From an uncultured Sphingobacteriales bacterium (GTDB lineage Bacteria > Bacteroidota > Bacteroidia > Chitinophagales > Chitinophagaceae), in the NCBI GenBank assembly GCA_963791295.1, contig CAWBRY010000001.1, positions 1,271,039 through 1,335,038 of the forward strand: a stretch of 64,000 bases of DNA, read 5' to 3'. Below are positions 27,235-52,971 of the stretch, piece by piece (the first letter of the stretch is position 1; each line of letters opens with the position of its first letter). The translations under genes and the position numbers were made by a program. The notes below the pieces were generated by a model. The model made no database searches and was not told where the DNA came from. It worked only from the letters and a program-made list of their open reading frames with translations.

Positions 27235-30201
27235 ATGAAAAGGTATTTCCTCTTTGCATTGTCCTTTCTGGCAATCCAAATCATGGCTATGCGCCAACGG
27301 GATGTGACGGGTAAGGTTACAGATGCCAGAGATGGCACTCCGCTCTCCGGCGTCAGCGTAACAATTAAAGGCACCCGCACCGGAACGACAACCGATCAGA
27401 ACGGGCAATTCAGAATTTCACGTCCGGCAACGGAGTGACTTGATTTTTTCCAACAGTGGGTTTTGCTGATAAAGAAGTGACGCCAGGAGCGGTCCTGTGA
27501 GCGTAACGCTGGCAGATCACCCAAAGCAACCTGCAGGAAGTGGTTGTCAACCGGTTATTCGGTCCAAAACAAGCGATCGGTTGCCGGCTCAGTTGCAAAG
27601 ATCAAAGGGGATGAGATCAAACTCCAGCCGTTGGGTTCATTTGATAAAGCATTGCAGGGAAAGATGCCCGGACTTTTATCACAATCCCAAAGCGGTCAGC
27701 CCGGTTCCCCTGCCGATGTGATCATCCGCGGTAAAGGATCGATCAACGGTACCAATACTCCACTATATATTATTGATGGTGTCCAGGTAAATGCTGCTGA
27801 TTTTTCAACCATCAATCCCGGAGATATTGAAACATTCAATATTCTCAAAGATGCATCGTCAACTTCCATTTATGGATCACAGGGGTGCCAATGGAGTTAT
27901 CGTTATCACCACCAAGAAAGGATCGGCAGGAAAAACCAGGGTTGATTATGATGGTCAGTATGGATATTCGGAATTGCCGACCAATAAGCTGGCGGCTGAT
28001 GAACATCAGCAGAGAAATTGCAGTATGAGTTCCATGACCGTCCGTTTTACGGACCTAATCCATTTGGATGGACCCCAGACTGAAGTGGATAGCCTGAGCC
28101 AGGCTTAATTATGATATCAAGGATATCCTTTTCCGCAAAGGAAAGACCCAGCAACATCAGGTGAGCTGTTTCCGGGGGTAATGAAAAAACAAGGTTTTAT
28201 ATCTCCGGATCCATTTTCGACCAGGAAGGAATTGTAATTACGACTGGCCTTAAACGTTATACAGGCAGGGTAAATATCGAAAATACTTTTGGAGATTTCA
28301 AAGTCGGACTGAACTCAACTTTCGGTTATTCAAGACAGATAGGAACTCGGGAAAATGACCAGTATATCGGTACACCTCTGAATGCCATCCGTTGGTTCAA
28401 TCCTTACCTGAGTCTTTATGATGAAGATGGAAATTATCAGCAGGATTTTTTTCAGGGTCAGCCCAATCCATTGCAGGAATTGCTCGAGAATAAAGGCAAT
28501 GGCGATGAATTAAAAGGCGTAGGTAATGTTTATGCAGAGTATTCAATATTCCATGGATAAAAGGCTTAAAGGCCCGAACTGTTTGGGGCGCTGATTATAC
28601 ACAAGATGAAGGGTTTACTTATCTCGACCGCACATACCGATCAGGGATCTCAATCCAAGGTGGAAATGGAGAAGTAGACAGGGCATTTGCAAAAACTATC
28701 AGATATACCGGAACGACATCGCTTAGTTATCCAACGCACCTTCGATGATCATGAAATAAGTTTAGCCGTTATATAATGAAATCATCCAGGGCAAGAGCGA
28801 AGGATTTGGGTTTAGCGGATTATGGCCTCGATGGTCCCTTCAGAAATGAGGCAGGGATTACTCCGGGTAGCAGTACAAATGGATATATTCCAATGGTGAC
28901 GGGAACGGGCACACGAAATGGCCTGGTTTCCTATTTCATCGATGGCAGTTATGGATATCAAAAGAAAATATTATATCAATGCAGGAGCACGGAGAGACGG
29001 GATGCTTCTTCCAGACTTTCCGCAGACGATCGCACGGCTACTTTCGGTCAGGTCGGATTTAGCTGGATCATGTCCGAAGAAAAATTTCTGCAGGGAGCAA
29101 GCGGCTGGCTGAATATCCTTAAATTGAAAACCAGCTATGGATCAGTAGGTAGCCAGGGTATTGGAGATTTCACTACCCGCGAATTTTTTGTTTCAACAGT
29201 ATATAATGGATTCAGTGGATTAGTATTGGCCAACCTTCCAAGGCCGCTGACCTGGGAAAGAAAAGTGATCTTCAATACCGGGTGTTGAATTTACGATGTT
29301 CAAAGGAAGATTTGGCGGAACGATTGAAGCTTACCGGAGCCTTACTAAGGAACTGTTCCTCGACCGGCAGTTATCCAGAACTTCCGGAGTTCCAATCCAT
29401 CAACGAATAACCTCGGTAAATTGGAGAACAAGGGGATTGAAGTTTCTCTGCAGGGCGATGTGATAAAAACCAAAGACTTTACCTGGAGTCTGTCCGTGAA
29501 CTATGCATATAACCAAAGCGAGTTGATTGACCAGACCGGACAGAAGAAAATATTTCCGGTCTTGTACATCAACAGAGTTGGTGAGGCAATTAATTCCCTC
29601 TATGTAGTGCGGTATGCCGGAGTGGATCCCGCAAACCGGTGACGCAATTGTATTATCAGGCCGATGGGAAAACAACGACAACAGTTTATGACCCGGCAGA
29701 CCGGGCAATTATCGGACCTAGCAGTCCTCCTCATTTTGGTGGCTTTTCATCAACGATCACTTATAAAGGTATTAGCCTGGATGTATTATTCAGTTATGCT
29801 TGTGGCAACTATATTTATAATAATGACCGCTTGAATGTGGAGAATCCGATTTATTGGTTCTCGGGCTTGTCAGCAGAAAATGCTGCGAGGAATGGCAGCA
29901 ACCTGGAGATATCACTGACATTCCAAGCCCTTTCAGTGATTTTCATCCGGAGACAACCCGATACGTTGAAAAAGGTAACTACCTGCGTTTGCGGAACATA
30001 ACCTTAAGTTATGCCTTACCAACAATCAATCATTGGATAGAGTGCAAAATAAGAAGTCTTCGCATTTTTGCCCAGGGTCAAAATTTGCATGTGTGGCACA
30101 ATTTCCAGGGATATGACCCTGAGGTTGTAACACAGATCTTGGGTGGTGCTCAATACCCCCAATTAAAAACTATCACGTTTGGCTTAAACCTTGGGTTTTA
30201 A
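27235..30201 (+). pseudogene. SusC/RagA-family TonB-dependent outer-membrane transporter (pair 1), frameshifted
   Basis: Signal peptide and carboxypeptidase-regulatory-like domain (VTGKVTDARDGTPLSGVSVTIKGTRTGTTTDQNGQF). Plug motifs (INGTNTPLYIIDGV, ILKDASSTSIYG). C-terminus ...QLKTITFGLNLGF*. At least 8 frame changes. Confidence 0.85.
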
Positions 30202-30207
30202 AAACAA

Positions 30208-31669
30208 ATGACTAAATTAAATTAATCAATATAAATTAAAAATATTAGCTGGGGTAGTTGCTCTTCTTGTCGCTGGCATCTTGCAAAAAAGTGTTGGAAA
30301 AAGACCCCGAATTTCTGCTCGACGGGGCGAACTCAATAGCGTGGAAGATTATGAATTTGCATTGACGGGCGCTTACAGGTCATTCCAGAATGTTAATTAT
30401 TATGGCGCGACCAGTGCTGCATCTAATGCATTTGTAGCTCTTCCGGATATGTTGGCTGATGGGCTGGAAGAAACTGGGGAGTCGCTTGGAAACGAGGAGA
30501 ACTTTTCGAGATGGCTATATGCAGAAGATGACAATCAAATTGAAGCCACCTGGCTGGCGGCTTATGAAATTATTGCCAATGCAAATATTATCACCAGCGG
30601 AATAGACGCATTTGCATCGGAGGACCAGGGCGCCGTAAATCGTATCAAGGCCCAGGCCTTAGCTATCCGAGCCATGGTCCATTTCGATCTCATGCGATAT
30701 TTGGTAGATGAATATGATCGTAATTCAACAAGTCCCGGTGTTCCTTATATAGATGTGTATGATTATGAACAAAAACCATCGCGTGGCACAGTTAAGGAAG
30801 ACTATGACCACATTGTGGCTGACATGCATACAGCGCTAGCCCTGATGGACAATATGGATCATCATATAAATTCCGGAGGCAGTCGTGCGTATATAGATGC
30901 AGATGGAGTTTATGGCATCCTGGCAAGAGTGTATTTATATGCAAACGAACTCGACAGCGCGGTCAAATATTCAACGTTGGCAATCAATGATATGCCATTG
31001 GCGCCGATATCAATGAATTTCAGAATATCTGGACAGATGCTTCAAATGCTGAAGTACTTTGGTCTTGTGTATTCGAGGCCGGACAAGGAACGCTAGGAGC
31101 CAATGCATATTTTGCCCCTTCCAATCGCAGTGAATATGGACCGCCATTTGATTTGCTCTTATTATATGATGATGCAAATGACGTTCGGTTTTCTTCCTAT
31201 TACGCAGTGGTAGAAGACGGATTCGGAGTTTCCCGATTTATATTAGCAAAATATCTTGCTAAGTCTTTTCAACTGAGCAATCCCGATGGTGTCACAAATT
31301 TCAAAGCCCTGCGCACGGGTGAAATGTACTTGATCCGGGCAGAGGCTTATGCGAGGCTGGGTGGTGTAAATGAAGCTTTGGGACTCGATGATCTAAATGC
31401 ATTTGAGAGCAGCAAGAATAAATGGATATGTCCCCGATGTGCTGACTGGTACAGCATTTGATTGATGCCATTTTCCTGGAAAGAGTGAAGGAACTCGAAG
31501 CCGAAGGTCATCGTTTTTTTGACCTGAAAAGAACGACCCGTACAGTCAATCGTCCCAGTTGCAGCAGTTTTTGCACTTTGGATCCAGCGGCCGTTCATGG
31601 ACATGGCCGATTCCTCAACCAGAGATCGATGCCAACCCGAATATCATTCCGCAGAATCCGGGATATTAA
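30208..31669 (+). pseudogene. SusD/RagB-family nutrient-binding lipoprotein (pair 1), frameshifted
   Basis: Immediately follows SusC. Central 271-aa piece. Typical motifs: ALRAMVHFDLMRY, LARVYLYANE, MYLIRAEAYARLG, FLERVKELEAEGHRFFDLKR. Ends ...IDANPNIIPQNPGY* at 31669. Confidence 0.8.
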
Positions 31670-39885: not shown

Positions 39886-41205
39886 TTACTTTTTTTGCGT
39901 CATTAGAATCAATACATAAAATGGGACACCCGCCATTAAAAGTATAAATCCCCAATACACTATTTCCTGGCCGGAGCCGGCTACAGCCCAAAGTGAAAAT
40001 AAGAATGCCAGCGACGCCAATAAAATAGATTTCCACGCGGAGGAGGGGAGGGCAGTACCCCGATTTTTTAATTTTATGATAATATAAGCGGCTGCGGAAA
40101 AGAGGTAGGGTACTAAAACAGTCAGGGTAGACAATAAAATCAGGAATTTGAATTGTTCAACCAGTCCCCGCGTATAATTCATTGACATGAGTATGGACAC
40201 CAGGATGCTCCCAATGATAATTCCGCGAGCAGGAACAGCCTTCTTGTTCAATTTACTGAAAACGGTTGGGAATAATTTGTCTTTGGCAATAGCATAGGGT
40301 ATTTGTCCCTGGACAAGAATCCACCCGTTTAATGCTCCAAAGGCGGCAATGGCTACACCCGCACTCACCCAATAGCGAGCAGCATTACCGCCGATTATAG
40401 CGGCTGCATCGGCAAATGGCGTAACTGAATTCTTAAGTTCACTTGGGTGTATCATTCCCATTGCGCTCATGCTGCTGAATATATAAATGACCGTTGCGAT
40501 CAAGGTTCCTATCATGGTGGCTTTTGCAATTGTCTTTTCCGGCCGAGCCACACTACCCGATGGAATGGTAGCACACTCGAGTCCCAGGAATGCAAAGAAT
40601 GTGAATGTAGCGGTGGTTGTAATAGCGGAAAAGTTCGAAGTACCACTTGAATTGAAGGGAACAAAATTTTCAAAGTGGATAAAAAATAAACCACCGAATG
40701 CGACTAATAGCAAAGGAAGGATTTTCAAGATCGTAGTGACCAATTGCATTTTACCGGAGGTTACAATGCCCAGGGTATTTATCCAGGTAAGGAACCAAAT
40801 GGCGGATAATCCGGTGGTGATAGCAAGCACTGGACTGGTGGCGAGTGAAGGGAAAAAAGTGCTCAGGGCGCTAACCAAAGAAACCGAGATGGCCGCATTC
40901 GTACACCAAATGGAGATCCAATAGCCCCAGGCGACAAGGAAACCCGCAAAGTCGCCAAAGCCAGCTCGCGAATAAGCATAAGGCCCGCCATCGGCTTTCG
41001 GCATTAGCTTACTTAAATTACTGTAAACCTTTGCGAGCAAGAAGGCGCCGATGGCTGAAAAAAGCCAGCCGAACAAACTAATCCCACCGAAGGCTGCCAG
41101 GGCTGAAGGCATAAGGAAGACGCCCGAACCAATCATATTTCCCACAACCAGGGAAGTGCTTGTCCAAAGACCTAACTTATTTTTCGACGACGAAGGATCG
41201 GCCAT
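39886..41205 (-). CDS. APC-superfamily amino acid/polyamine antiporter (ArcD/AdiC-like)
   Basis: Intact 439 aa with 12 hydrophobic segments. N-terminal motif: NMIGSGVFLMPSALAAFGGISLFGWLFSAIGAFLLA...GGPYAY. Confidence 0.85.
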   Translation of the reverse strand: MADPSSSKNKLGLWTSTSLVVGNMIGSGVFLMPSALAAFGGISLFGWLFSAIGAFLLAKVYSNLSKLMPKADGGPYAYSRAGFGDFAGFLVAWGYWISIWCTNAAISVSLVSALSTFFPSLATSPVLAITTGLSAIWFLTWINTLGIVTSGKMQLVTTILKILPLLLVAFGGLFFIHFENFVPFNSSGTSNFSAITTTATFTFFAFLGLECATIPSGSVARPEKTIAKATMIGTLIATVIYIFSSMSAMGMIHPSELKNSVTPFADAAAIIGGNAARYWVSAGVAIAAFGALNGWILVQGQIPYAIAKDKLFPTVFSKLNKKAVPARGIIIGSILVSILMSMNYTRGLVEQFKFLILLSTLTVLVPYLFSAAAYIIIKLKNRGTALPSSAWKSILLASLAFLFSLWAVAGSGQEIVYWGFILLMAGVPFYVLILMTQKK

Positions 41206-41333
41206 TAATTATTGAGTAAATAAAATGATTAGGGAAGATACAATATAAAATTTACCATGATCATTTCCCCTTAATTCAAAAAAAATGATTTATTCTCCCT
41301 GATTGGTTAAATGATTCATCAAATTCGCTTTCG

Positions 41334-41341
41334 TATTTTTG
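41334..41341 (+). promoter_or_regulatory. Candidate -7 box (TAnnTTTG) upstream of the araC-family gene
   Basis: TATTTTTG lies 35 nt upstream of the ATG at 41376. Confidence 0.3.
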
Positions 41342-41375
41342 AAACCAGTAATGATCCATTCGTTCGAATAAGCCG

Positions 41376-42347
41376 ATGAATATTGAACTAACACTATCCA
41401 ATAATGGGCCTCTGGAATTCAGTCCAGGGTTGCCTTCCAACTATACGGGTCCATTTCTTCCAGGAGCCGTGGCAGTTTATGCAAAGTCCAATAGCGCGCT
41501 TGTTGTCTTGCAGGAATTGGCCGGCGAACATTATTCCATCCGGGTGAGTGCAGGCAGATTTTTAAAACGAGTGAATGCACTTGGGTTCATTCGATTGCAG
41601 GGACTCTATAGTTATTTCATGTTAAAAAACGGAATTCGGAAAGAAGTGGGGACGATGGGCAAGCTACACGTGCGGGAAGGCCAGTACACCTGTTTTTTCA
41701 CTGGCCCCACCGATTGCAAAGGGCGGTTTGAAAAGACTACGGAGTTCAGGGCCTTGGATGTTTTTTACTCTCCGAAACTATTGCTGGAACTGGTTCCTTT
41801 CTTCCCTGAGTTAAAAGGAATATTAGATTCATCGGTTTCACTCACGCTACCGGGTAAGGTATTTTGGGCGTTGCCTTCGATGAAGGAGATCACTAATCAG
41901 ATACTGAACTGTCCTTATGATGAAGACACGCGCCGATTTTATTTTGATCTTAAGGTCAGGGAGTTGTTGTATCAAATGCTTCAAAATGCCTACAGGAAAG
42001 ATTCGGTGGAGCATTTGTTTACTCCTTGGGAGGTAGCAAAGATACATGAGGCAAGGACTATATTGGAAGGCTATATATCAAAGAAGCCACCTTCGATACA
42101 GGTATTATCCAGGCAGGTCGCCTTGAATAAATTTAAATTAAAGCTGGGCTTCCGCCAGTATTTTAAGACGGGAATTTTTGAATGGCTGCTGGAGCAAAGG
42201 ATGCAGCATGCAAAACATCTTGTGTTGACGACCAACCGGCCGATGAAGGAGATCTGTAAATCGGTGGGTTATCCTCGCACCACGAACTTCATCACTGCCT
42301 TTCGCCGGCGGTTTGGCATGACGCCGGGGTCACTTCGGAGAAAATAA
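41376..42347 (+). CDS. AraC/XylS-family transcriptional regulator
   Basis: Intact 323 aa. The C-terminus carries a double HTH (...SIQVLSRQVALNKFKLKLGFRQYF...PMKEICKSVGYPRTTNFITAFRRRFGMTPGSLRR). The N-terminal sensor domain is unassigned. Confidence 0.85.
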   Translation: MNIELTLSNNGPLEFSPGLPSNYTGPFLPGAVAVYAKSNSALVVLQELAGEHYSIRVSAGRFLKRVNALGFIRLQGLYSYFMLKNGIRKEVGTMGKLHVREGQYTCFFTGPTDCKGRFEKTTEFRALDVFYSPKLLLELVPFFPELKGILDSSVSLTLPGKVFWALPSMKEITNQILNCPYDEDTRRFYFDLKVRELLYQMLQNAYRKDSVEHLFTPWEVAKIHEARTILEGYISKKPPSIQVLSRQVALNKFKLKLGFRQYFKTGIFEWLLEQRMQHAKHLVLTTNRPMKEICKSVGYPRTTNFITAFRRRFGMTPGSLRRK

Positions 42348-42353
42348 TACTTT

Positions 42354-42387
42354 TCGCAAAACTTTTAGGTCGTCTCGCAAAACATTT
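42354..42387 (+). promoter_or_regulatory. Two direct repeats TCGCAAAAC(W)TTT spaced 21 bp apart: candidate AraC-family operator
   Basis: Repeats at 42354-42366 and 42375-42387, between the araC stop (42347) and the mauE-like ATG (42442). Confidence 0.4.
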
Positions 42388-42441
42388 CGTGAAAATCGAA
42401 TGGATTCGGAGTTGAACTTTACCCCGCCTTAAAGAATTGTC

Positions 42442-42909
42442 ATGAGAAACTCCGGAATCAGAAACCTAGCCATCGATATCATTGCGGCGTTGCTGATCTT
42501 CCTTTTTATTTATGCCGCGGTGAGCAAGTTATTGGATTATCAAAAATTTCGCGTGCAGTTGGGCCAATCCCCGATGCTAACGGTATTCGCCGGGTGGGTA
42601 GCCTGGTTGATACCTGCGATCGAAATTATTCTAGCCGTGACGCTGGCGGTGCCGGCCTGGCGGCTGGTCGGACTTTATGGATCATTCAGCCTGATGACGA
42701 TGTTTACTGCCTACATCATTGCGATCACGCAGTATAGTGAGTACGTGCCGTGTTCCTGTGGAGGGGTGTTGCAGCACATGAGCTGGGATCAGCATTTGAT
42801 CTTCAACATTGGATTTGTCTTGCTCAGTCTGACAGCCATTATACTTTATCCGGTAAATAATAAACGAATTGTTGCAACAATGATGCCTCCGTATGGCCTG
42901 CGGGGGTGA
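42442..42909 (+). CDS. MauE/DoxX-like redox-associated membrane protein
   Basis: Intact 155 aa with 4 hydrophobic helices. The PCSCGG motif sits between helices 3 and 4, as in MauE-type proteins (CxC-G). Confidence 0.7.
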   Translation: MRNSGIRNLAIDIIAALLIFLFIYAAVSKLLDYQKFRVQLGQSPMLTVFAGWVAWLIPAIEIILAVTLAVPAWRLVGLYGSFSLMTMFTAYIIAITQYSEYVPCSCGGVLQHMSWDQHLIFNIGFVLLSLTAIILYPVNNKRIVATMMPPYGLRG

Positions 42910-42999
42910 GCGTTTGCCCGTGTCGCTAATCACGGGTAAGGGGAAACTGAAAACCTTTAGAAAAGAGTAAGTAAAATTTTTATGATTAAATCTTTTATT

Positions 43000-43266
43000 A
43001 TGAAAAAGAACATTTTCAGCGCGATCATCTTTGTGATGGCATTGTCGGCAGCATTTGCGTTTACGCCGTTGAAACCGGAAGCGAAAGGGAATTTTGCTAC
43101 GCAGACGGTTTATTATAATAGCGGTGAAGCCAATCGAATTGTCCGAATTCGAAGACCTGTAGCAACATAAACAACTGGCACTAGTTGTGTAGCCAATGTG
43201 TCAACTTATTTTGATTCACAAGCAAGCACATGTACTGCCACATCTGCTTATAAATGGAAACCTTGA
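43000..43266 (+). pseudogene. Cys-rich secreted mini-protein, paralogue 1 (two frameshifts)
   Basis: MKKNIFSAIIFVMALSAAFA signal peptide. TQTVYYNSGEA, then QSNCPNSKTCSNIN and TGTSCVANVSTYFDSQASTCTATSAYKWKP* in the two other frames. Collinear with paralogue 2. Confidence 0.55.
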
Positions 43267-43306
43267 ACAAGAGGTTGATAGAATTTAATAAGTAATATAC
43301 ATCTAA

Positions 43307-43573
43307 ATGAAAAAGATCAAATTGCGCTGGCTCGTATTCGCGTTTGCAATTTTGACAGCTTTTCTTAGTAATTCGGCCGTCGGTAGAGAATCAAAAAGCA
43401 CTGTAACACAAACAGTTTATTATAACATAGGTACTCAACTCGATTGCCCGAATTCAAGAGAGTGCAGCTGCGTAAACACAGGTTTTGTATGCGTGGCAGG
43501 CATTACGACTTATTATGATTCGCAAGCCAGTCCGTGCACAGCGGTTTCTACCTGCAAATGGCATCGGTTGTAA
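43307..43573 (+). CDS. Cys-rich secreted mini-protein, paralogue 2 (intact, 88 aa)
   Basis: MKKIKLRWLVFAFAILTAFLSNSAVG signal peptide. The mature part is ...TQTVYYNIGTQLDCPNSRECSCVNTGFVCVAGITTYYDSQASPCTAVSTCKWHRL, with 6 Cys. Confidence 0.65.
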   Translation: MKKIKLRWLVFAFAILTAFLSNSAVGRESKSTVTQTVYYNIGTQLDCPNSRECSCVNTGFVCVAGITTYYDSQASPCTAVSTCKWHRL

Positions 43574-43580
43574 TTCAGCA

Positions 43581-43611
43581 AAAAGAAGTTAGCACAATGC
43601 TAACTTCTTTT
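43581..43611 (+). terminator. Strong hairpin (terminator/attenuator) directly after the mini-protein gene
   Basis: AAAAGAAGTTAGC/GCTAACTTCTTTT perfect 13-bp stem, loop ACAAT, T-rich 3' side. It starts 8 nt after the stop at 43573. Confidence 0.7.
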
Positions 43612-43637
43612 ATTTCTGGGAATGATCAAGATTGTCA

Positions 43638-44687
43638 ATGTATAAGAGAAGGACTTTATTGGTTGTAGTGAGCTTCATAATTGCAATTGCCACTGTTTTT
43701 CTGCTCCACGTTTATTCACGAAAAACAATCGGGGAAAAGAGCAGGTTTTTACGAATTTTCCCCTCTCATGTGGTTGCATCTCAAAGAGAAATCAATATCG
43801 GGTATAATTCTTATTATTTTTCTGGCACTTCATCCAACAATATTTATCTGGGAAATCTGACCGCTCCAATTATACTGAAAATAAATATAGAACAAGGTGA
43901 TACGGAAATTATTAGGTTAAAGCTTCCTCCTATAATAACTGCATCCAGAGGTAATTTTCGGATCACTGTAGATTCTCCGTATGTGTTTCTAAATGATCGT
44001 GTTACGACCCGTACCTATGTAGGGTTGATCGGCGACTCCTGCAAATATCTGGGAAGGCTGGATAGTTTTCAGAGTCTGGAAATAATTCCTATTTCTACGT
44101 CAACTTTTGTTCTGCGAACTTACAGTAAGAGATATCAACAAAGTATGCTGCTAAAAGCAATAGTAGATAATTCGAAAGTAAAAAGGAAAACTTACTTATT
44201 GAAAAAACATTTAGAAGGTTTTTTTTCTACAGATGGGATATTAGAGTATGATCGGCAAAATAATCGATTGGCATTTATTTACTACTATCGCAATCGATTT
44301 GCTATACTTGACACAAATTTGAATCTTTTATATGAACGAAGAACTTTGGACAAAACCGAGGTTCCAGATCTTCAGGTAAGTACGATTTATTCCGAAGAAA
44401 TTTCCACTTTTTCTGCTCCTCCGTTGGTCGTGAACAAAAAGGCCTCCATTTTTGGTGACTACTTGTTAATAAACTCAAACTTACCGGCTGACAACGAAAA
44501 CATGAAGGTATTTGATGACTACTCGGTAATTGATGTGTATATGATAAGAGAAGATAAGTACAAAATGAGTTTTTATATTCCCAAATTAAATAGTGAAAAG
44601 TTATCAGATTTTAGATTTAGTAGCGGAATGCTATTTGCGCTTTATGATCGTTATCTGGCTATTTATAAGATCGGCGTCATCCAATAA
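43638..44687 (+). CDS. N-terminally anchored beta-rich protein, no recognised family (possible propeller-like fold)
   Basis: Intact ORF (the track starts at TTG 43632; the ATG is at 43638). One TM helix, LLVVVSFIIAIATVFLL. The rest is rich in short aromatic/hydrophobic strands (YYFSG, FRITVDSPYVFL, RLAFIYYYRNRFAILD, VIDVYMI, MLFALYDRYLAIYKI). Confidence 0.65.
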   Translation: MYKRRTLLVVVSFIIAIATVFLLHVYSRKTIGEKSRFLRIFPSHVVASQREINIGYNSYYFSGTSSNNIYLGNLTAPIILKINIEQGDTEIIRLKLPPIITASRGNFRITVDSPYVFLNDRVTTRTYVGLIGDSCKYLGRLDSFQSLEIIPISTSTFVLRTYSKRYQQSMLLKAIVDNSKVKRKTYLLKKHLEGFFSTDGILEYDRQNNRLAFIYYYRNRFAILDTNLNLLYERRTLDKTEVPDLQVSTIYSEEISTFSAPPLVVNKKASIFGDYLLINSNLPADNENMKVFDDYSVIDVYMIREDKYKMSFYIPKLNSEKLSDFRFSSGMLFALYDRYLAIYKIGVIQ

Positions 44688-44698
44688 ATCATAAATGT

Positions 44699-46264
44699 TT
44701 AGTTGTCTTTAGATAAGGCTTGGATCTTTGATAAGATGGTTTTAGCATCATCTTGATTTGTGAATTCCGCGGCGATTTTGCCGTTTTGGTCGATCAGTAA
44801 TATAAATGGAGAATAGTTAACCCCATAGTACTTGATAATGGGTATTTGCGAAAATGCCAAGATTCCACTAGAAGGTGACTGTGCGCGCAAATTAATACTT
44901 CCTGGAGTTGTATACTTTCTACTGTAAACGGATTTCATCCAAGTTTCTTTAGATTGGTCAGTTGAAATACTGACAAATTTAATTGGCAATTCCGGAGGGA
45001 TTTGGGGCAGGATTTCTGTAATCATTGTATTATTAAACATGAGACATCCGGAGCATCCAGTGGACCAGATATCCATTAGAACGATATTTCCTTTGAAGTT
45101 CTCCAGACTAACAATTTTTCCGGTCGTATCGGGAAGCTTAAAATTAAATGCTTTGTCTCCTTCAGCCGCCCTTGTTATTGCAGAGTTTTGAATAGCATTT
45201 TTTAACAAAGGTGATTTAATTGTCTGAAGGGCATCGTTGATAAACCTTTTTCTTAGTGACCCCATTGAAATTAACCCGAGGTTTTGATTTGTATTTATGA
45301 GCATTTCTGTCAAAAGGCGCTCCCTTAGTATACCTTTGTATTTTTGCTTTATTTGATAGTATAGATCGGAAAAGGATAAAATGACATCGATATAACTAAC
45401 TCGCTTCTTGAATGAAAGCTCTAGCACCTCCTTATAATACACTGCGGCTATAAGTTGTGGAGAATAGGGAATAATTAGTGACTTGACTTTGATGGGCGAA
45501 GTTTTGTGCTTTTCCAGCAGCTCAATATGACTTTGGAGATTTTCAGAAGTGTCAAGAATAAGTATAATCCGCAGTAAGTCAATTAATGTCCTATCATAAG
45601 AACTATAAAATTCACCTGCCACATCAGCTTTCATGATTTCGTAGGTGGCGACACTTAAGTCTTTCTTATTTGAATTCAGCAAATTTTGTTGCCTTTGATA
45701 AAATTTAAGTTTCTCAGATCCTATGCTCGCCCAATAATTGATAATTGAAGGGGCTGACTTTGTGTCCGCGGCTTTCCGAGTTTTCGTTACCGAATCTTCA
45801 TATTCTTTAGATTCGGACTTAAATTTCCGATTTGCGAAAATCAAAGATGATCTGCAGTTATATTTGCTGGATCCCGGCCCGCTAGTTTTTACGTCGGTTA
45901 TCCATTTATTCCTTACCTCAATTTGCATACTTAATTTGTCATTCCTTTCCACTACATATTCGTCTACAATATCATTGTCTTGGTTGTTGGTACTGTCGAA
46001 GTAGACGGAAAGCTGACCAATCTTTCCGATGTTCTTAACTGGAATATTTAGTTTGAACCGCCCTTCATATACTTTTACTAAAGTATCATATCGATGTAAT
46101 ATATCCATTTGAGTAACGCATTGGTCATAGTAATAGAGGCTCACTGCATGGACCGTGCTTACCTCACCTTCTATCTTTCCATCAATTGTTACGTATTTAG
46201 ACTGACCTCTTGACAAATTGCAAATAAGAAGGGCTACAACAATAAATACCAGGCGCGAATTCAT
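44699..46264 (-). CDS. TlpA/ResA-type thiol-disulfide oxidoreductase with about 370-aa N-terminal extension
   Basis: Intact 521 aa with a signal peptide (MNSRLVFIVVALLICNLSRGQ). The C-terminal thioredoxin fold has FKLPDTTGKIVSLENFKGNIVLMDIWSTGCSGC (CxxC). It is the last gene of the sigma/FecR/SusC/SusD operon. Confidence 0.8.
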   Translation of the reverse strand: MNSRLVFIVVALLICNLSRGQSKYVTIDGKIEGEVSTVHAVSLYYYDQCVTQMDILHRYDTLVKVYEGRFKLNIPVKNIGKIGQLSVYFDSTNNQDNDIVDEYVVERNDKLSMQIEVRNKWITDVKTSGPGSSKYNCRSSLIFANRKFKSESKEYEDSVTKTRKAADTKSAPSIINYWASIGSEKLKFYQRQQNLLNSNKKDLSVATYEIMKADVAGEFYSSYDRTLIDLLRIILILDTSENLQSHIELLEKHKTSPIKVKSLIIPYSPQLIAAVYYKEVLELSFKKRVSYIDVILSFSDLYYQIKQKYKGILRERLLTEMLINTNQNLGLISMGSLRKRFINDALQTIKSPLLKNAIQNSAITRAAEGDKAFNFKLPDTTGKIVSLENFKGNIVLMDIWSTGCSGCLMFNNTMITEILPQIPPELPIKFVSISTDQSKETWMKSVYSRKYTTPGSINLRAQSPSSGILAFSQIPIIKYYGVNYSPFILLIDQNGKIAAEFTNQDDAKTILSKIQALSKDN

Positions 46265-46305
46265 AGTTCTAATTTTGTGTTTACAGATGAATACGTTAGG
46301 AATTC

Positions 46306-47665
46306 TTAGTAACCCGCATTTTGAGTAATGTGCGGATTGTTTTGGATCTCTTGCGATGGAATGGGAAATAGAATGTCTGAGGGCTCCCAGGATGTTTTTA
46401 GTGGGGCGAGAATAGAGTCCGCTGTTTCGGTTCTTTTCATATCAAGCCAACGATGTCCCCATTCTCCAAATAGTTCGTGCTGGCGTTCATCTAGGATTGC
46501 CATGAGCATACTATTTTCATCATTCGCCGCAGTTGGACTAAGTCCTGCTCTTGAGCGAATCATGTTTAGATCCTCTTGTGCTCCAACAATGTTATTTTGA
46601 TGAACTCGAGCTTCGGCCCTGATGAGGTACTGTTCTGCAAGCCGCAAAATCATAGAATATTCATCAAGACTTGCACCGGATTTGATTTTGTATTTATATG
46701 GAAAATAGTACGCGTTGACCCCATCCGAAAAGCTATCTATCCAATTCGACAACCTCTGATCTGTGTTTTCGAAGGAGCTAATCAAAGTTGTCGTTATACT
46801 CGATATGTTGGGTACGCTGGTTAGTATAAAATATCTGCCTTCATTTGTATTGTATCCGGGTTCATTAGGCATCAGCTGCCATATAGCTTCTGAACTGTTT
46901 TTTAGAAATATCGCATTTAGGTCCGAGATCAGGATAATAATTAGTATTATTAATTACGGAATTGCTCTCTATCTCAGCATTGACCCAATCTCCTAAGTAT
47001 AGAAAAGTGCGCGCCAGCATCGCTGTGGCTGTCCATTTATTTGGCCTAATCCTTTCATTATTTGAAAAAGAGTATGTCTGATAATAGCGCCTTTAGCATC
47101 CTCTAAATCGGCAATGATTTGTTGATAGACTTCAGATTTGGATGAACGCTATGCCTTTGAATTAACTCGATAGTCTGTAGAGAGAATTAGAGGTACGTCC
47201 CCAAACAGGTTTATTAGATAAAAGTAAAAGAAGGCTCTTATAAATTTCGTTGCCCTATTAATTCTTTTTTAATGTCGACTGAGAAAGTTGATGAATTCTC
47301 AATCCTTCCAATACCGCATTGCAAGAATAAATTACTGATAAGGTTCTCCCCACATATGTGCGATGATTGCTCATTCGTTGGAATGATGGAATTTTCAAAA
47401 AACTGAATATCGTCCTGACTAGATGAATAATTAATTCGTCCGATAGTCCTGCCTGCGTCGAAAAATATTCGACTGCCCCGCTTGCAAATGCGAAGGTGAA
47501 AACCATTCTACTATATATTCCGTCTACCGCCGCCTTTGCAGAAGCATCGCTTGAAAATACTATCGAACTAATTAATTCGGTAATTGGAGGATCAATTTCT
47601 ACAAATTTCTTACAGGAATTGAGTGTCAATTGCAAAATTACTATGAAAAGGCAGCCCAATCTCAA
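46306..47665 (-). pseudogene. SusD/RagB-family lipoprotein (pair 2), frameshifted
   Basis: N-terminal piece with lipobox LTLNSC (47258-47665). C-terminal piece 46306-46872 with YLIRAEARV...RQHELFGEWGHRWLDMKR...PIPSQEIQNNPHITQNAGY*. The middle is in other frames. Confidence 0.8.
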
Positions 47666-47702: not shown

Positions 47703-50700
47703 TTAAAAGTTCAATTGAATACCTGTGGTAATATTCGTAGTGGGGGAAGAATAAGTTGTTGTGTTTCGGGGTCGAATCCGATATAGTTGGTAAACGTGAA
47801 AAGGTTTTGACCTTGTAAATAAATTCGCAAATTTCTCAAGCCCTATTTTTATTTTATTTTTTTTAGTTTCAACTTGATAAGACAAAGACAAGCTCTTAAA
47901 TCGAACAAAGGAGGCATCTACGATAGCGCCATCACCAAAAGAGTAATTATTGTAATATGCAGTGGCAGCCTCAGAACCAAAATCTTGAGTGAATTTTTGG
48001 ATGGCAGTGATATCTCCCTGCTGACGCCAACGATCAAGAACAACTGTTGGCTGGTTCACAGGCGCTCCAGGAACTCCAATGCTCCTTGAATAATCAAAGC
48101 CTGTCTGTTTGACAAATTGAATTAAAAACTCTAATTCAAAAGCTTTGTACTTTATACCACTGGAAAATCCCCCATAAAATCTTTGGCCGATCATTTCTTC
48201 GCCGTAAGGTCTAAGGGAAAGTTTGGATTTGCATTCCCATCGCCGTTAATATCTTCAAATTGGTACACCCCGGTTTGGGGGTCGACTCCGGTTAAATGAA
48301 ATCCCTTATATATTCCCAGCGGTTTTCCAACTTCATAAAAGTATATATAGTTAGAATTGTCAATGTCAGGAAACCTTAATAATTTATTTTTCGGAATTGT
48401 AAAATTAAAATCTACTGCCCACGATACATTTTTGCCCCTTAATACTTCGGAATTAAACTCAAATTCAAATCCTCTATTTTCAATTAACGCAGGTAGATTA
48501 TATTGGATGCTTGAAAATCCAGTGCTTAATGGTAGAGGAGAGGCCACTAATTGGTTGGATGAACGGTTTCTAAAGTAATTGAGCTTCATCAAGAGCCGTT
48601 CTCTAAATAGTCCCAGTTCCAATGCGATTTCAAACTTCCTATTAACCTCCCAACTGTAATCTGGATTTGCAATCCGAACCGGTCTTAATCCTGCATTGCC
48701 CTGATAGGGAAAACTAGTTGCCTGCCAAGATGTTAAATATTGATAAGGAGCTAGTTGATCATTTCCTGTAGTACCATAACTAAATCTCACTTTTCCGTAA
48801 GATAAAAACCCGAGGGCTTGTTTAGCAAAGGCTTCGTTACTAAAAATCCATCCGGCCCCAACTGCACCAAGATTTGCAAATTGTCTATCGGGACCGAAGC
48901 GACTAGAGCCGTCTCTTCTCCAGTTAAATTTAAAAGATATTTATTCTGATAATTATAATTCAGCCTTCCGAATATAGCATTATACCTATATTGAGAGTAG
49001 CTATTTGTTGAGACTCGAATCGATGACGCAGCAGCGATGTTTTCAATGAGGCCATCGTTACTAAATCCACTTGCGGTAATTCCACGCAATTCGCTTTTAT
49101 CGCCTTGGAATGTCGCTCCTATAAGTGCAGTTAGCTGTCCCAGTGCGAATGAAATTCTATATTCAGCTTGTGGCTCAATTATCCAGGTCTCTATAGACTT
49201 GTTAGCAAATTCGGTGTAGGAATCTGCAGCTGTGTAGCCTACAAATGGATTGTATGAACTTAGCGGATTGCTTTGAATTTCGTTTAATGCTAATCGGGAG
49301 TACCCTAGGCCGGCTTTAATTAGAAGGCCGCTAATTGGTTTATACTCGAAGAGACCATGAGAAATTAGCGTACTTGTGTTTGCCTGATATTTTTTTTGTA
49401 ATTCTGCGAGCGGATTAGAAAATGTTCCATTTTCCCAGTTTAAGTTACCTTCTGAATCGTAAACAGCAGGCGCTACTGGCGGAAGCATGATGAGTCCGGC
49501 TATGCTATAACTATATAAATTGCTACGTTCTGAGTTGTAGTTCGCGGTTAAATTTCCTGAAAATTTCCTATTGTTTGTTTGATGATTTAAACTGATGCCT
49601 ACTGAACCTTTTTGTTCCGAAAGACTACCCGGAAACACGGTGGTTTCTTTGTGATAGCCGCCGCTAATAGAAATTGCGTATTTTGATTTCCACCGGAAAT
49701 TGATGATTGCAAATCGGTATAATGGGCTGTTCCTCCGATCAATAATTTTTGCCAATCTGTATAGCGAGTAGTGTCCCATAAAGTCAAATCATAGTCCCAG
49801 GATTGAGGAGTCGCGCCATCATTTAGAAAGGCTTCATGCCGCATGTCGAGATATTGCTTCGTATCCAGGAATTCCATGAAATGCGCAACTTTTCCGACTC
49901 CCGATGTAAGCGTTAACATTTAAATTGGTTTTCTCTATTTTCCCCTTTTTTGTGGTTATTAATATTACTCCATTTGCTCCTCTGGAACCATAAATAGCGG
50001 TGGCATCTGCATCCTTTAGTATTTCAATACTTTCAATATTTGAAGGATTTATACTATTTAGCGTATTACCTCCTCCTGTAATACTATTTGAAAGGTTAGG
50101 GTTTAATGGTCCGGCGGGAAATGGCACTCCATCGACTATGTAAAGCGGGTCATTCCCATTGGCTATGGAATTCCTACCCCGAATTCTGAACGGTGAAATC
50201 TCCGCCGGGCACTCCCGTGTTTTGAGAAATGTAAAGACCGGCCACCCGTCCTTGCAAGGCCTGAAGGGGATTGTTAACCGGCTGTTTAGAAATCGTTTCG
50301 GCCGTAACCTTGCTGATGTTGCCGGTTCTCAGTTTGTCGGTAGTATTATAATACCCCGCATTAATCGTAACCTCTTGTTGGGCAGTAATCTTCGTTTTTA
50401 CCTGGATCAGAATTTTTGATTTATCGCCCACCTTCAACTCCAGGCTTTCTATATTCACTCCGCTGATGATTAATACCGCATTCTGATCAATATCTTTTAT
50501 TTCAAAATAACCGTTGGCATCGGTCATAGCACCTCGTTGCGTACCTTTTATCATCAATGTCGCTCCTTCTATCGGCTCGCCACTCTCGTTGACAACACGA
50601 CCGGTAATGTTGATAGGTTGAAAGGATGTCGTTGCAGGTGGAATAGGTTCTGCTTTTGTTTGTACCACTATATATCGATCCTCGACAATAAATGTAAGCG

Positions 50701-50989
50701 GCTGATCCTTGAAACATGCCGCCAGCGCCTCTGTCAACGTAATGCTCCTTAGTTCACAGGTAACCGGGATCGTCGCCTTTAACTGCGCGCGTGTATATAT
50801 AAATGAATAGCCTGATTGCTTCTTGATTTCTTTGAAAGCCGTCTCTAACGGAGCATTGCTGAGAGAGAGTGTGATGGTCTGACCAAATCCTCCTGCGGAG
50901 ACCTGCAGGCAGCCGACTACGGTAAGCAGGATTAAAAGTTTCATGGTCAATAAAATTGAATGTCCGGATTCGAAAACTTTTAATTGCAT
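47703..50989 (-). pseudogene. SusC-family TonB-dependent transducer with N-terminal STN signalling domain (pair 2), frameshifted
   Basis: The N-terminal 271-aa piece is intact. It has an STN-like domain (LSLSNAPLETAFKEIKKQSGYSFIY...), a carboxypeptidase-regulatory-like domain (ITGRVVNESGEPIEGATLMIKGTQRGAMTDANGYFEI) and a plug. The downstream barrel is in 6 or more pieces and ends ...GIQLNF*. An alternative start is at 50944. Confidence 0.85.
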
Positions 50990-51125: not shown

Positions 51126-52319
51126 TCACGGTAATACATATACGGTTTTGTTGTCGATTTTGAAATGTACATATCCATTTAGCTCCAATAGATGTAATAG
51201 TTTGGTTAAAGGCTCACTGCGTCGTATAGTCGCATTAAATAGCTGCTTGATCTCTCCTTTGTACTCCACAGTTGCTCCGTACCACCGTTCGACTTGGTGC
51301 ATGATCGATTCTATAGGAGTATCATGAAATACAAAATTTCCGTTTTTCCATCCCGTGATCTCATCCGTGTCTACACCTTCCTGCCTTGTCAGTTTGTCGC
51401 CGCTTATCCTTGCTTGCATGCCGGGTTCCAGCTTTTCGATTTGATTCATCCTATTAACAGAAACGGTTCCTTCCAGCAGGGTTATTTCTTTGGACGCCTC
51501 ATTGCTATAAGACATGATATTAAAATGAGTTCCAAGCACCTTAACTCCAACACTATCCCCAACAACCACATGAAATGGTTGGTTTTCATTTTTTGCGACT
51601 TCGAAATACGCTTCACCATCCAATTCAACTCTTCTCTCTGCCCCGGAGAAATGGGAAGGATATTTGATCGTGCTCGCAGCATTTAACCAAACCCTGGTCC
51701 CATCCGGCAATCTGACCTGGTATTGCCCGCCAATCGGAGTGGAAAGAGTGTGAATAGATGCGGGTTCATTCTTTGAAATGTCTGCCACATATTCCAACTC
51801 TCCATCCCGCAGTTTGTTGATATCCACTCCTTCCTCATTTTTCACCAATCCAGTCTTAGCTTCTGTCAAATCGATTACACTACCATTCGATAACCTAAGC
51901 GTTGCACGATTGCCTCCCGGTTCAAGAGTTGTGGAATCCGATTTAGCTATTTCGCGCTGCCCGGCAATATCTTTCGCTGCATAGCGGTAAATGAAAAAGA
52001 GACCTACAATTACGAGGAGAACTGCAGCGGCAATCCAGGCAATGGTTGTCCTGGATTGTTTCGTACGAAGCTTACCGCTTTCCCTCAACCGCCGATAAGA
52101 TTCTCTCGTTTGAACTTCATCCATCCAGGCCAGGTTTGCTTCCAGGTTTTTCTCGTCGGTCAATTCTTCAAATAGTAACATGTTATGATCGCTTGCATTC
52201 ACCCAATCATTCAATTCATCATGCTCCTCTTCCGTGATGCTGCCCCGGATATAGCCTGCTACCAGGTATGCAATCCGATAAGCATCCTTATCCAGATGTG
52301 CGTAGGGATCCTTTTTCAT
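51126..52319 (-). CDS. FecR-family anti-sigma/transmembrane sensor
   Basis: Intact 397 aa. N-terminal anti-sigma region, one TM helix (IAWIAAAVLLVIVGLFFIY), FecR domain (LPDGTRVWLNAASTIKY...GEAYFEV), and a C-terminal DUF4974-like part. Confidence 0.9.
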   Translation of the reverse strand: MKKDPYAHLDKDAYRIAYLVAGYIRGSITEEEHDELNDWVNASDHNMLLFEELTDEKNLEANLAWMDEVQTRESYRRLRESGKLRTKQSRTTIAWIAAAVLLVIVGLFFIYRYAAKDIAGQREIAKSDSTTLEPGGNRATLRLSNGSVIDLTEAKTGLVKNEEGVDINKLRDGELEYVADISKNEPASIHTLSTPIGGQYQVRLPDGTRVWLNAASTIKYPSHFSGAERRVELDGEAYFEVAKNENQPFHVVVGDSVGVKVLGTHFNIMSYSNEASKEITLLEGTVSVNRMNQIEKLEPGMQARISGDKLTRQEGVDTDEITGWKNGNFVFHDTPIESIMHQVERWYGATVEYKGEIKQLFNATIRRSEPLTKLLHLLELNGYVHFKIDNKTVYVLP

Positions 52320-52372: not shown

Positions 52373-52971
52373 CTATGCCGGCAGGAAAAAAATTTTCAGA
52401 AAGAGAGGAAGTATAATTAGCAGAGGGCGAACGAGTTTTTTTCGCATGGCTTCCAGACCCTTTGTTTTTTGTGTCTTAATCGTACTCCGCGAAAGATTCA
52501 GCTCCCTCGCAATTTCTCCGGTCGTCTTTCCATCAATAAAATGCATGGCTAATCACCCTGCGATTTCCTGGAGCCAATCCTTTTAACGCAGCATGGACAA
52601 GTCGATATGCTTCTGCCCGCACGATCTGATCGTGGGGCGTCTCGTAGTATGATCATTGATCCTTGCGAATCCCGCTGAACCTGATTTCGTCTGGCTTCCT
52701 GGTAAAGCACCTTTTGACTATCTCGCCGCACGATCTTATATAAATATGCGCGAATTGCCTGGTAGGTCGTCAGCTTGCCATGCATTTTCCAGGTTTTTAC
52801 AAATGCTTCCGATGCGATTTCTTCAGCAACGGCGCGGTTTTGAACAAGCCGGTGAGCAAAGAGGGAAAGGGCAGCATGGAATTCTAAAAAAAAGAATTCA
52901 AGCCCCTGCTCGTCTCCTTGTTGAAATAAAGAGGTGTATTCCTGGACCGTAAGATTGAACTTTGAACGCAA
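52373..52971 (-). pseudogene. ECF sigma factor (FecI-like), frameshifted
   Basis: Region 2 is in the 140-aa piece (EIASEAFVKTWKMHGKL...AYLYKIVRRD). Region 4 is in another frame (...FIDGKTTGEIARELNLSRSTIKTQKTKGLEAMRKKL), with the stop at 52373-52375. Confidence 0.8.

Follow-up and report, generated by a model that had tools for sequence, protein, structure and literature searches.

Several described systems keep a private pair of disulfide-forming proteins encoded beside the client, among them DsbB/DsbA and VKOR, BdbB/BdbA in the Bacillus sublancin cluster, and DsbI/DsbL, which accompanies the propeller enzyme arylsulfotransferase. SusC and SusD are the signature nutrient-uptake machines of the Bacteroidota; nearly all of those studied take glycans, and a few take peptides or vitamins. 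Loci that produce a molecule and then retrieve it are familiar from siderophores, as with pyochelin and PchR or pyoverdine and FpvA/FpvR. To our knowledge, no biochemical role has been defined for MauE proteins since the 1990s. In the methylamine dehydrogenase (MADH) gene clusters known as mau, for example that of Paracoccus denitrificans, MauE lies beside a small exported Cys-rich protein, a beta-propeller and a TlpA/ResA-like thioredoxin, and a helping role in disulfide formation of the small MADH subunit has been proposed for it (van der Palen et al. 1997, as cited in PMC7794033). Homologues of mauE and mauD also occur beside small precursors in candidate clusters for peptides that are ribosomally synthesized and modified after translation (RiPPs) of Streptomyces, where they were read as peptide-modifying (decRiPPter, PMC7794033). 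Here we describe a gene set that is widespread in the Bacteroidota, that has components of known kinds, namely a SusC/SusD (SusCD) locus and private disulfide machinery for a small secreted protein, and whose ensemble matches no characterised system that we found. It was met in a stretch of 64,000 nucleotides from an uncultured Sphingobacteriales bacterium (assembly GCA_963791295.1, contig CAWBRY010000001.1, positions 1,271,039 to 1,335,038), referred to below as the window, and coordinates are those of the window unless another locus is named.

At the core of the set is a trio of plus-strand genes, in the window a MauE-family membrane protein of 155 aa (42442-42909), a Sec-exported mini-protein of 88 aa (mini2, 43307-43573) and a putatively periplasmic, inner-membrane-anchored beta-propeller of 351 aa (43632-44687). 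A scan of one genome per species found 363 propeller loci, the best 80 of which were fetched for survey, with the open reading frames (ORFs) of the fetched loci annotated by iterated profile searches seeded with the window proteins. Percentages refer to the 61 loci of at least 14 kb, and wider counts to 82 loci, these being 81 fetched loci and the window. Across the four orders surveyed (Chitinophagales, Cytophagales, Sphingobacteriales and Flavobacteriales) MauE was present in 92% of loci, a mini-protein gene in 95% and the whole trio in 90% (55/61), which answers positively a check proposed in an earlier account, made from the letters of the window and its ORF list (the sequence-only reading), of whether these genes co-occur in relatives. 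SusC or SusD lay within 7 kb in 87% of the loci and a thioredoxin-fold gene was found in 48%. Gene content, conservation, gene fusion, Cys covariation, RNA structure and SusD orthology are what the analysis shows directly, and the trio and one SusCD clade are co-inherited.

The trio is ordered either MauE, mini-protein, propeller or MauE, propeller, mini-protein, and it meets the SusCD genes in three arrangements. In the first, that of the window, the propeller gene converges on a minus-strand run whose last genes are FecR, SusC, SusD and the thioredoxin. The second is likewise convergent, with a peptidase replacing the thioredoxin, and occurs in Flavobacteriaceae. The third is a single co-directional run in Pedobacter, comprising SusC, SusD, Peptidase_S9, thioredoxin, an alpha/beta hydrolase, an unknown gene, MauE, DUF6520 (the family of the mini-protein, see below) and the propeller. 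The association also held in reverse, as all three canonical DUF6520 genes followed up adjoin MauE together with SusCD and/or a Peptidase_S9 gene; two of these three loci have the propeller and the third is seemingly a decayed locus. It is highly improbable that the genes form no functional unit and that the thioredoxin gene abuts the plus-strand run by chance. The two gene sets of the window converge and may be transcribed as separate units, and its intact trio lies beside SusC and SusD pseudogenes, yet the association recurs over four orders with a gene fusion, a shared Pedobacter operon and an orthologous SusD clade, and the RNA leader described below is found only at mini-protein genes.

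Some loci departed from these arrangements. In one Pedobacter and one Flavobacterium locus (L083, 17146-19376; L084, 1-2161) the module lies beside genes of conjugative elements, namely RteC in both, DUF4133/DUF4134 in the former and Toprim/DUF3945 with HTH_17 in the latter, and the module may sometimes travel on integrative conjugative elements. Two further Flavobacterium loci (L085, 7161-8852; L086, 4263-5936) look decayed, with a MauE of 186 aa that lacks the propeller part, a DUF6520 gene and an S9 peptidase fragment of 160-170 aa, so that in some lineages the system has been lost piecemeal. In a Chitinophaga locus (L050, 3-2924) no SusCD genes are nearby; an ATP-binding cassette (ABC) transporter gene and an HlyD-family gene lie 5' of the trio, with beta-lactamase and alginate lyase genes between this pair and the trio. 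The ABC/HlyD pair could be an export route, or a coincidence.

The assignment of the 155-aa protein to the MauE family, proposed in the sequence-only reading from its PCSCGG motif, is secure by profile: PF07291 matches with 114.6 bits (cut-off 27, E 5.1e-33) over profile positions 3-127 of 128. Four hydrophobic segments, read from the sequence, are conserved in 70 homologues, and in these module MauEs the PCSCGG motif, between the predicted third and fourth transmembrane (TM) segments, is at least 90% conserved. MauE forms the N-terminal part of a fusion with the propeller in about 10 of 81 loci and about 20% of the 150 best family representatives, and the resulting proteins, which include those of Flavobacterium, have about 500 aa. 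A MauE with four TM segments and its N-terminus inside would fit such a fusion to a TM-anchored periplasmic domain; this topology together with the fusion places the propeller in the periplasm, presumably anchored in the inner membrane, and the charge distribution and the fusion topology suggest that the PCSCGG loop faces the periplasm also. The likeness to private disulfide pairs lies in an own membrane thiol-redox protein encoded beside its client, and in the case of DsbI/DsbL also beside a periplasmic beta-propeller. Unlike DsbB, VKOR, BdbB and DsbI, however, the membrane protein here is of another family (MauE/DoxX-like, with a CxC motif), and in contrast to the DsbI/DsbL case the propeller has no conserved Cys and so is not the disulfide client. 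The decRiPPter clusters likewise place MauE homologues outside methylamine metabolism and beside small predicted precursor peptides, but they belong to another phylum, are uncharacterised, have leader-peptide RiPP candidates as precursors, and lack SusCD, the propeller and a Sec-signal mini-protein. One metagenomic locus (L087, 5762-9685) has two tandem MauE genes ahead of the propeller; its SusCD operon encodes a DsbD_N-domain protein, another unrelated thiol-redox domain in the accessory slot, with FG-GAP and Fib_succ proteins.

The mini-proteins had been described as two paralogues of about 88 aa, with signal peptides and several Cys. For mini2 the description holds, as it has 88 aa, a signal peptide and six Cys in the mature part, four conserved and two extra. 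The other copy, mini1 (43000-43266, plus strand), is open for only 62 aa (frame 42982-43170); by tblastn it shares 39% identity with mini2 over 87 aa, and then only when read across an in-frame TAA and a segment in another frame (…SQSNCPNSKTCS…), so it is a pseudogene or carries sequence errors. Nor are the mini-proteins without a family. Scored directly against DUF6520 (PF20130), both fall below the cut-off of 25.4 bits (mini2 18.9, mini1 16.9), and a single-sequence search with mini2 retrieved only itself. A profile of 60 locus copies with mini2 as its first row, which mini2 itself matches with E 4.4e-9, retrieved 81 proteins, most of them PF20130 and several labelled 'DUF6520 family protein' at NCBI, and from this profile the mini-proteins are best classed as divergent members of DUF6520, a family that is recognised but has no known function. 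A literature search found no paper mentioning DUF6520.

All copies carry a Sec-type signal (consensus MKxxK…AFxxAIxxAFA) ahead of a mature part of about 55-65 residues. In the 60-copy alignment the mean column identity of the mature part is 24% and its sole invariant residues are four Cys. The conservation of these ORFs, which had been set as a check, extends to 97 copies with the four conserved Cys; the pattern is CCCC in 86 and -CC- in 10, where the first and fourth Cys have been lost together, with no single loss, and the only other case is the broken copy of the window. That C1 and C4 are kept or lost together implies two nested disulfides, putatively C1-C4 and C2-C3. Loci have from one to five mini-protein genes, in tandem and diverged.

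The mini-protein gene is also the most elaborately regulated of the module. An Rfam scan of the window gave a single match, RF02914 (DUF805b RNA), at 42937-42973 on the plus strand between MauE and mini1, with 38.1 bits against a gathering score of 35.6, and the curated model also passed this score in seven elements of six other loci at the same position. The motif reportedly originates in the comparative screen of Weinberg et al. in 2017. Its Rfam entry describes a cis-regulatory candidate only, and neither its downstream gene nor its fold was found stated in the literature searched, the original motif text lying outside the reach of that search. A covariance model made from five copies, in which only a 4-bp stem was specified, matched 58 sites in 1.24 Mb, every one of them on the gene strand and a short distance 5' of a mini-protein gene, with the leader 20-45 nt upstream of the DUF6520 gene and a median of 27 nt from its end to the start codon. 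Stem 1 is paired in 99.1% of cases with compensation at 3/4 pairs, against a maximum of 54% in slid controls for stem 1 alone. Loop bases also pair with the 3' tail in a second helix, absent from the search model, that is 93.3% paired and covaries at 4/4 pairs (one pair, for example, is AU in 22, GC in 21 and UA in 5), where slid controls for the whole structure reach at most 43%. As this second helix is both paired and covarying, the leader is of the H-type pseudoknot form, and DUF805b RNA is, judged by covariation and position, the pseudoknot leader of DUF6520 genes. In size and topology it recalls the preQ1-I riboswitch; no ligand is known for DUF805b. A leader-like match in one locus (L069, 8522-8568) precedes a small ORF (MKKKNKKKLDLS…) not flagged by the mini-protein profile, and the leader may also serve other small genes.

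Further signals flank the same gene. In the window an inverted repeat (CCCGTG, 8 nt, CACGGG; 42917-42936, plus strand), read from the sequence, abuts the 5' side of the pseudoknot; of 52 leaders, 56% have a perfect palindrome of at least 10 nt at this place, compared with 2.3% of control windows. From lineage to lineage the palindrome changes in sequence and keeps its symmetry (e.g., L038 in the region of 6653, L078, L059 and L054). Folded as an RNA hairpin, the palindrome was no better in energy than controls; an operator bound by a dimeric regulator and an additional RNA helix are both conceivable. A TAnnTTTG box was not found upstream of the leaders. On the 3' side of mini2 stands a 14-bp stem-loop followed by a U-rich stretch (43581-43611, plus strand), terminator- or attenuator-like, whose centroid structure has -16.8 kcal/mol and a z-score of -4.5, with 0/200 shuffles folding as well. 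Such a strong hairpin follows 78% of the 97 mini-protein genes compared with 6-8% of MauE, propeller and AraC genes, the median for the best 40-nt window being -18.5 kcal/mol after mini-protein genes and about -6.5 kcal/mol after the others, and this holds even where the propeller gene comes next. From the pseudoknot leader and the strong hairpin it follows that the message for the mini-protein is under its own control and probably produced in excess, so that the gene would be over-expressed relative to its neighbours. The idea of a dedicated machinery with a small Cys-rich product, already put forward from the window, fits these expression signals and the fusions of MauE to the propeller.

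Small, variable and apparently abundant secreted proteins raise the question of antagonism, in which DUF6520 proteins would be bacteriocin-like toxins entering competitors via SusCD, with MauE folding the toxin and the propeller, thioredoxin or peptidase providing self-protection. We regard this as rather improbable. It would account for hypervariable mature regions on a fixed disulfide frame, for one to five tandem diverged copies and for the strong expression signals around the structural gene, and some loci lie beside conjugative-element genes (RteC, DUF4133/4134, Toprim) or an ABC/HlyD exporter pair. Many known bacteriocins, moreover, enter through TonB-dependent transporters. However, in most loci there is no double-glycine leader, C39 peptidase or dedicated exporter and the Sec signal is the only export signal, whereas sublancin-type clusters have an ABC/C39 exporter. 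C39, ABC, radical-SAM and LanBC-type genes were all missing from the conserved gene set, a single locus having the ABC/HlyD pair nearby. Within the sample the chromosomal context is conserved in many species and not strain-variable, and searches of Pfam, NCBIfam and PADLOC recognised no lysis or immunity gene family. An anti-phage defence system was also considered and rejected, PADLOC giving no match for any of the five proteins searched.

The 351-aa protein had been noted as an anchored orphan without a nameable family, and so it remains: the N-terminal hydrophobic helix was confirmed and no understood family was matched in Pfam, NCBIfam or the PDB. Its AlphaFold2 model (predicted local distance difference test (pLDDT) 85.5, predicted TM-score (pTM) 0.81) shows an all-beta body that comes after a TM helix spanning residues 3-34. 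Foldseek returned only generic six-bladed propellers at a TM-score of about 0.5 and about 10% identity, including NHL domains, Drp35, strictosidine synthase and the Bacteroides DUF4221 structure 3s9j. The protein itself had no Pfam or NCBIfam sequence match, and its profile matched no PDB sequence at E up to 10; because the sequence search of the PDB was empty and the fold search generic, no catalytic family can be assigned. Nor did the propeller part of 25 homologues match Pfam at E up to 1, TolB_like (PF15869), DUF4221, DUF5128 and NHL included, apart from one homologue with a marginal match (E 0.042) to an unrelated plant propeller domain. The label 'TolB-like 6-blade propeller-like' that UniRef gives to some homologues was therefore set aside, as the Pfam scan did not reproduce it. 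A homology search gave 59 relatives, in all of which the matching part is without a Pfam domain and about twenty of which are MauE fusions of about 500 aa, and an exhaustive profile search gave 2149 representatives at 50% identity, 1555 of them at E <= 1e-30. The propeller family is thus large and stands outside every curated family. In its alignment the invariant polar residues are D201, N221, D240, N268, E289 and D301, and there is no conserved Cys; since the invariant residues are mostly polar and include no Cys, the protein probably has a conserved binding or catalytic face rather than a redox site.

The convergent 521-aa protein (44699-46264, minus strand) is as first described, its stop 11 nt from the 351-aa ORF and its C-terminal thioredoxin domain carrying WSTGCSGC, in which the CxxC active site reads CSGC. 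Thioredoxin_8 (33.4 bits, cut-off 27) and AhpC-TSA (27.2 bits, cut-off 26) match this domain, and the nearest solved chains are thiol-disulfide oxidoreductases and ResA. The N-terminal part of about 350 aa has no family match. In NCBIfam the matches to ResA (36.4 bits, cut-off 170), TlpA (22.5 bits, cut-off 230) and Bcp are all far below their cut-offs, and the MauD model is not among the matches, so the protein is by profile a TlpA/ResA-like thioredoxin-fold protein and the equivalog of neither. It had been seen as facing the module. The convergence is real, but the gene is the last of a minus-strand run, not mentioned in the sequence-only reading, of extracytoplasmic function (ECF) sigma factor, FecR, SusC, SusD and thioredoxin, and the conserved partner of the trio is SusCD (87% of loci against 48% for the thioredoxin). 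Nor is it the equivalent of MauD, as non-orthologous thioredoxin-fold proteins or peptidases fill the same slot elsewhere. Orthologues of the window type, with about 350 unmatched residues ahead of the thioredoxin domain, occur in few loci (L001, L018 and L042), and the commonest occupant has an N-terminal AhpC-TSA/Redoxin domain and about 300 further residues. Others are a DsbH-like thioredoxin, a DsbD_N protein, a Met-zincin (DUF4953 with DUF5117) and an S9 peptidase; the thiol-redox occupants represent three or four unrelated architectures. A thioredoxin-fold gene is present in 48/82 loci, and a thioredoxin-fold or Met-zincin/S9 peptidase gene in 64/82. Unrelated proteins predicted to act on disulfide or peptide bonds have thus been recruited repeatedly to the slot after SusD, and this is our best argument that the SusCD unit handles disulfide-bonded peptide material.

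By sequence comparison the SusD proteins of the module loci belong to one orthologous clade. In it 61/63 cluster together, and the identity between pairs has a median of 42.6% (5th percentile 36.5%) at a length coverage of 97%, where two unrelated SusDs present in one of the loci reach 28% over 47%. The order of ECF sigma factor, FecR, SusC (STN, CarboxypepD_reg and Plug domains), SusD and accessory gene is that of ordinary SusC/SusD (RagA/RagB-type) loci, but the accessories here are thiol-disulfide oxidoreductases or peptidases in place of glycoside hydrolases, and one SusD clade is tied to the MauE/DUF6520/propeller set. These features might also be expected of a catabolic or detoxifying locus, in which SusCD imports foreign Cys-rich peptides, thioredoxins reduce them and peptidases degrade them, with MauE passing electrons to the reductases through the inner membrane as CcdA/DsbD do, and with DUF6520 and the propeller as accessory or regulatory periplasmic parts and not the product. 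The slot after SusD indeed holds reductase-type thioredoxins (CxxC, TlpA/ResA-like), DsbD_N, Met-zincin and S9 peptidases, the conservation of the SusD clade over four orders is as for one fixed substrate class, and an ECF sigma/FecR pair with an STN-bearing SusC is the usual substrate-sensing layout of uptake loci. Nevertheless, we consider it unlikely: the mini-protein gene, which with its leader, hairpin and tandem copies is the best conserved and the most elaborately regulated, is left without a role, the fusion of MauE to the propeller goes unexplained, and the trio is also found without SusCD.

With all parts in hand the comparison with mau can be completed. Membership of a mau cluster was rejected, there being no MauA, MauB or MauD match and no conserved cofactor residues. 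The part list is alike in outline (MauE, a TlpA-like thioredoxin, a beta-propeller and a small exported Cys-rich protein), and one could imagine a quinoprotein-like two-subunit enzyme with the propeller as heavy chain, the mini-protein as cofactor-bearing light chain and MauE with a MauD-like thioredoxin for maturation. This is very unlikely, as the mature mini-protein has no conserved Trp, Tyr or Lys for tryptophan tryptophylquinone (TTQ), cysteine tryptophylquinone (CTQ) or lysine tyrosylquinone (LTQ), neither it nor the propeller matches a MADH light- or heavy-chain family in Pfam, and the hairpin and tandem copies point to an excess product and not to a 1:1 subunit. In contrast to mau, the thioredoxin gene, missing from half the loci, is part of the SusCD operon and encodes proteins of varying architecture that are not orthologues of MauD; the propeller is membrane-anchored or fused to MauE; the mini-protein genes are tandem, hypervariable and preceded by an RNA leader; and the system is Bacteroidota-restricted.

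The copy in the window is partly decayed. The sequence-only reading had counted five same-strand genes at 41376-44687, of which the AraC regulator, MauE, one mini-protein and the 351-aa gene are intact and the other mini-protein is a pseudogene. The regulator (41376-42347, plus strand, 323 aa) is an AraC-family protein as named there (HTH_18 at its C-terminus, E 1.6e-18), with an N-terminal domain of about 230 aa that found no family match in a profile search; an orthologous AraC gene stands directly upstream of MauE on the same strand in 36% of loci (22/61). A sigma-70 promoter and terminator scan of 41100-46500 performed no better than on shuffles and missed the mini2 hairpin. On the minus strand SusD (46306-47665) is broken, SusD_RagB matching one fragment with E 3.1e-28 and the homology to the intact SusD of locus L001 being split over two frames in tblastn. 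SusC (47703-50989), recognised by STN, CarboxypepD_reg and Plug, lies in six ORF pieces with at least three frame changes (frames -1, -2, -1 and -3 against the L001 SusC in tblastn). In L001 and most other loci SusC and SusD, with FecR and the ECF sigma factor, are intact. The FecR-type anti-sigma factor of the window (51126-52319, minus strand, 397 aa) is intact (FecR E 4.7e-19, FecR_C E 9.5e-18), and with the thioredoxin gene and the plus-strand genes it makes up the full-length flanks of the broken pair. The ECF-type sigma factor ORF (52549-52971, minus strand) has 140 aa, is shorter than usual and matches only region 2 of sigma-70 (Sigma70_r2, E 1.6e-06); it may be truncated. A second SusC/SusD pair, at about 27300-31590 on the plus strand, is likewise shattered by frame shifts and stops, and long ORFs are few in the 12-38 kb part of the window. 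Since two SusC/SusD pairs are shattered and other parts of the window have unbroken ORFs of 1151 and 1699 aa, gene decay in the source genome seems more likely than random sequencing error. With SusC, SusD and mini1 as pseudogenes, at most the producer half of the system described next is intact there.

Our tentatively preferred explanation, which we would call possible rather than probable, is that the window holds a copy of a conserved Bacteroidota system of two halves. The producer half, on the plus strand and AraC-regulated, would comprise MauE, the propeller and one or more DUF6520 genes, with the mini-protein matured by MauE and the propeller. The receiver half would be the one SusC/SusD clade, often under ECF sigma/FecR control, in an operon ending in a thiol-disulfide oxidoreductase or a peptidase. 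In this scheme MauE would be a thiol oxidase in the membrane with the mini-protein as its substrate, functionally analogous to DsbB/VKOR, so that oxidative folding by MauE is suggested by analogy, and the propeller, working with MauE, would hold or modify the mini-protein during disulfide formation. The folded mini-protein or its cargo would be the ligand of the dedicated SusCD unit, and the reductase or peptidase would then open or destroy the mini-protein, leading either to retrieval of the cargo or to a signal via the STN/FecR/ECF path. The redox direction of MauE, the contact between propeller and mini-protein, export beyond the periplasm and the identity of the SusCD ligand are the steps that we infer.

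Several observations weigh against this explanation. In about 13% of full-length loci the trio stands with no SusCD genes nearby, and the window combines an intact trio with a dead SusCD pair, so that the three genes may function by themselves. An outward transfer of electrons from MauE to the thioredoxin, as in CcdA/DsbD, is equally conceivable, and the role given to the propeller, which lacks a conserved Cys, is a guess. The mini-protein has a Sec signal only and no route across the outer membrane is encoded, so that a SusCD ligand would need an export step that is not known. The SusD identity of about 43% also sits awkwardly beside the column identity of about 24% in the mature mini-protein for a specific pair of ligand and receptor. 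Finally, AlphaFold2 run on mini2 with 79 DUF6520 sequences gave no usable fold (pLDDT 49), and because structure prediction failed, covariation is the one line of evidence for the disulfide pairing.

A fuller version of the two-half system, with all its steps joined, is in our judgement doubtful. In it the mini-protein would be matured by MauE and the propeller under riboswitch-like pseudoknot control, released, then taken back or sensed via its own SusCD and ECF sigma/FecR, and opened by the reductase or peptidase, making it a protein carrier ('xenophore') or a self-signal circuit. The analogy is with siderophore loci, where an AraC protein is on the producer side, a TonB-dependent transporter comes with a sigma/anti-sigma pair, and what has been retrieved is set free or broken down by a reductase or hydrolase; unlike a siderophore, the product here would be a ribosomal two-disulfide protein, with neither export route nor cargo known.

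Taken as a whole, the interpretation first drawn from the window is partly supported, and none of the outcomes that it had named as refuting it was observed. Its view that no characterised system has such a composition agrees with our literature search, which found no description for DUF6520, DUF805b, MauE with SusC/SusD, DoxX with SusD and thioredoxin, or a SusD with TlpA system, and there is a real chance that the system is new in kind. A propeller family of about 2,000 clusters at 50% identity is still without a Pfam model. The Rfam motif DUF805b now has a specific downstream gene and a pseudoknot fold, which makes screens for a ligand or protein partner possible. As the copy in the window is partly decayed, an intact locus from a culturable species would be better suited to experiments. 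For work on MauE the module offers a small protein with two disulfides as an experimentally tractable client, together with a partner to which MauE is naturally fused. If the link between SusCD and the trio is functional, it would give SusCD biology a new substrate class, possibly with a produce-and-retrieve or signalling logic.

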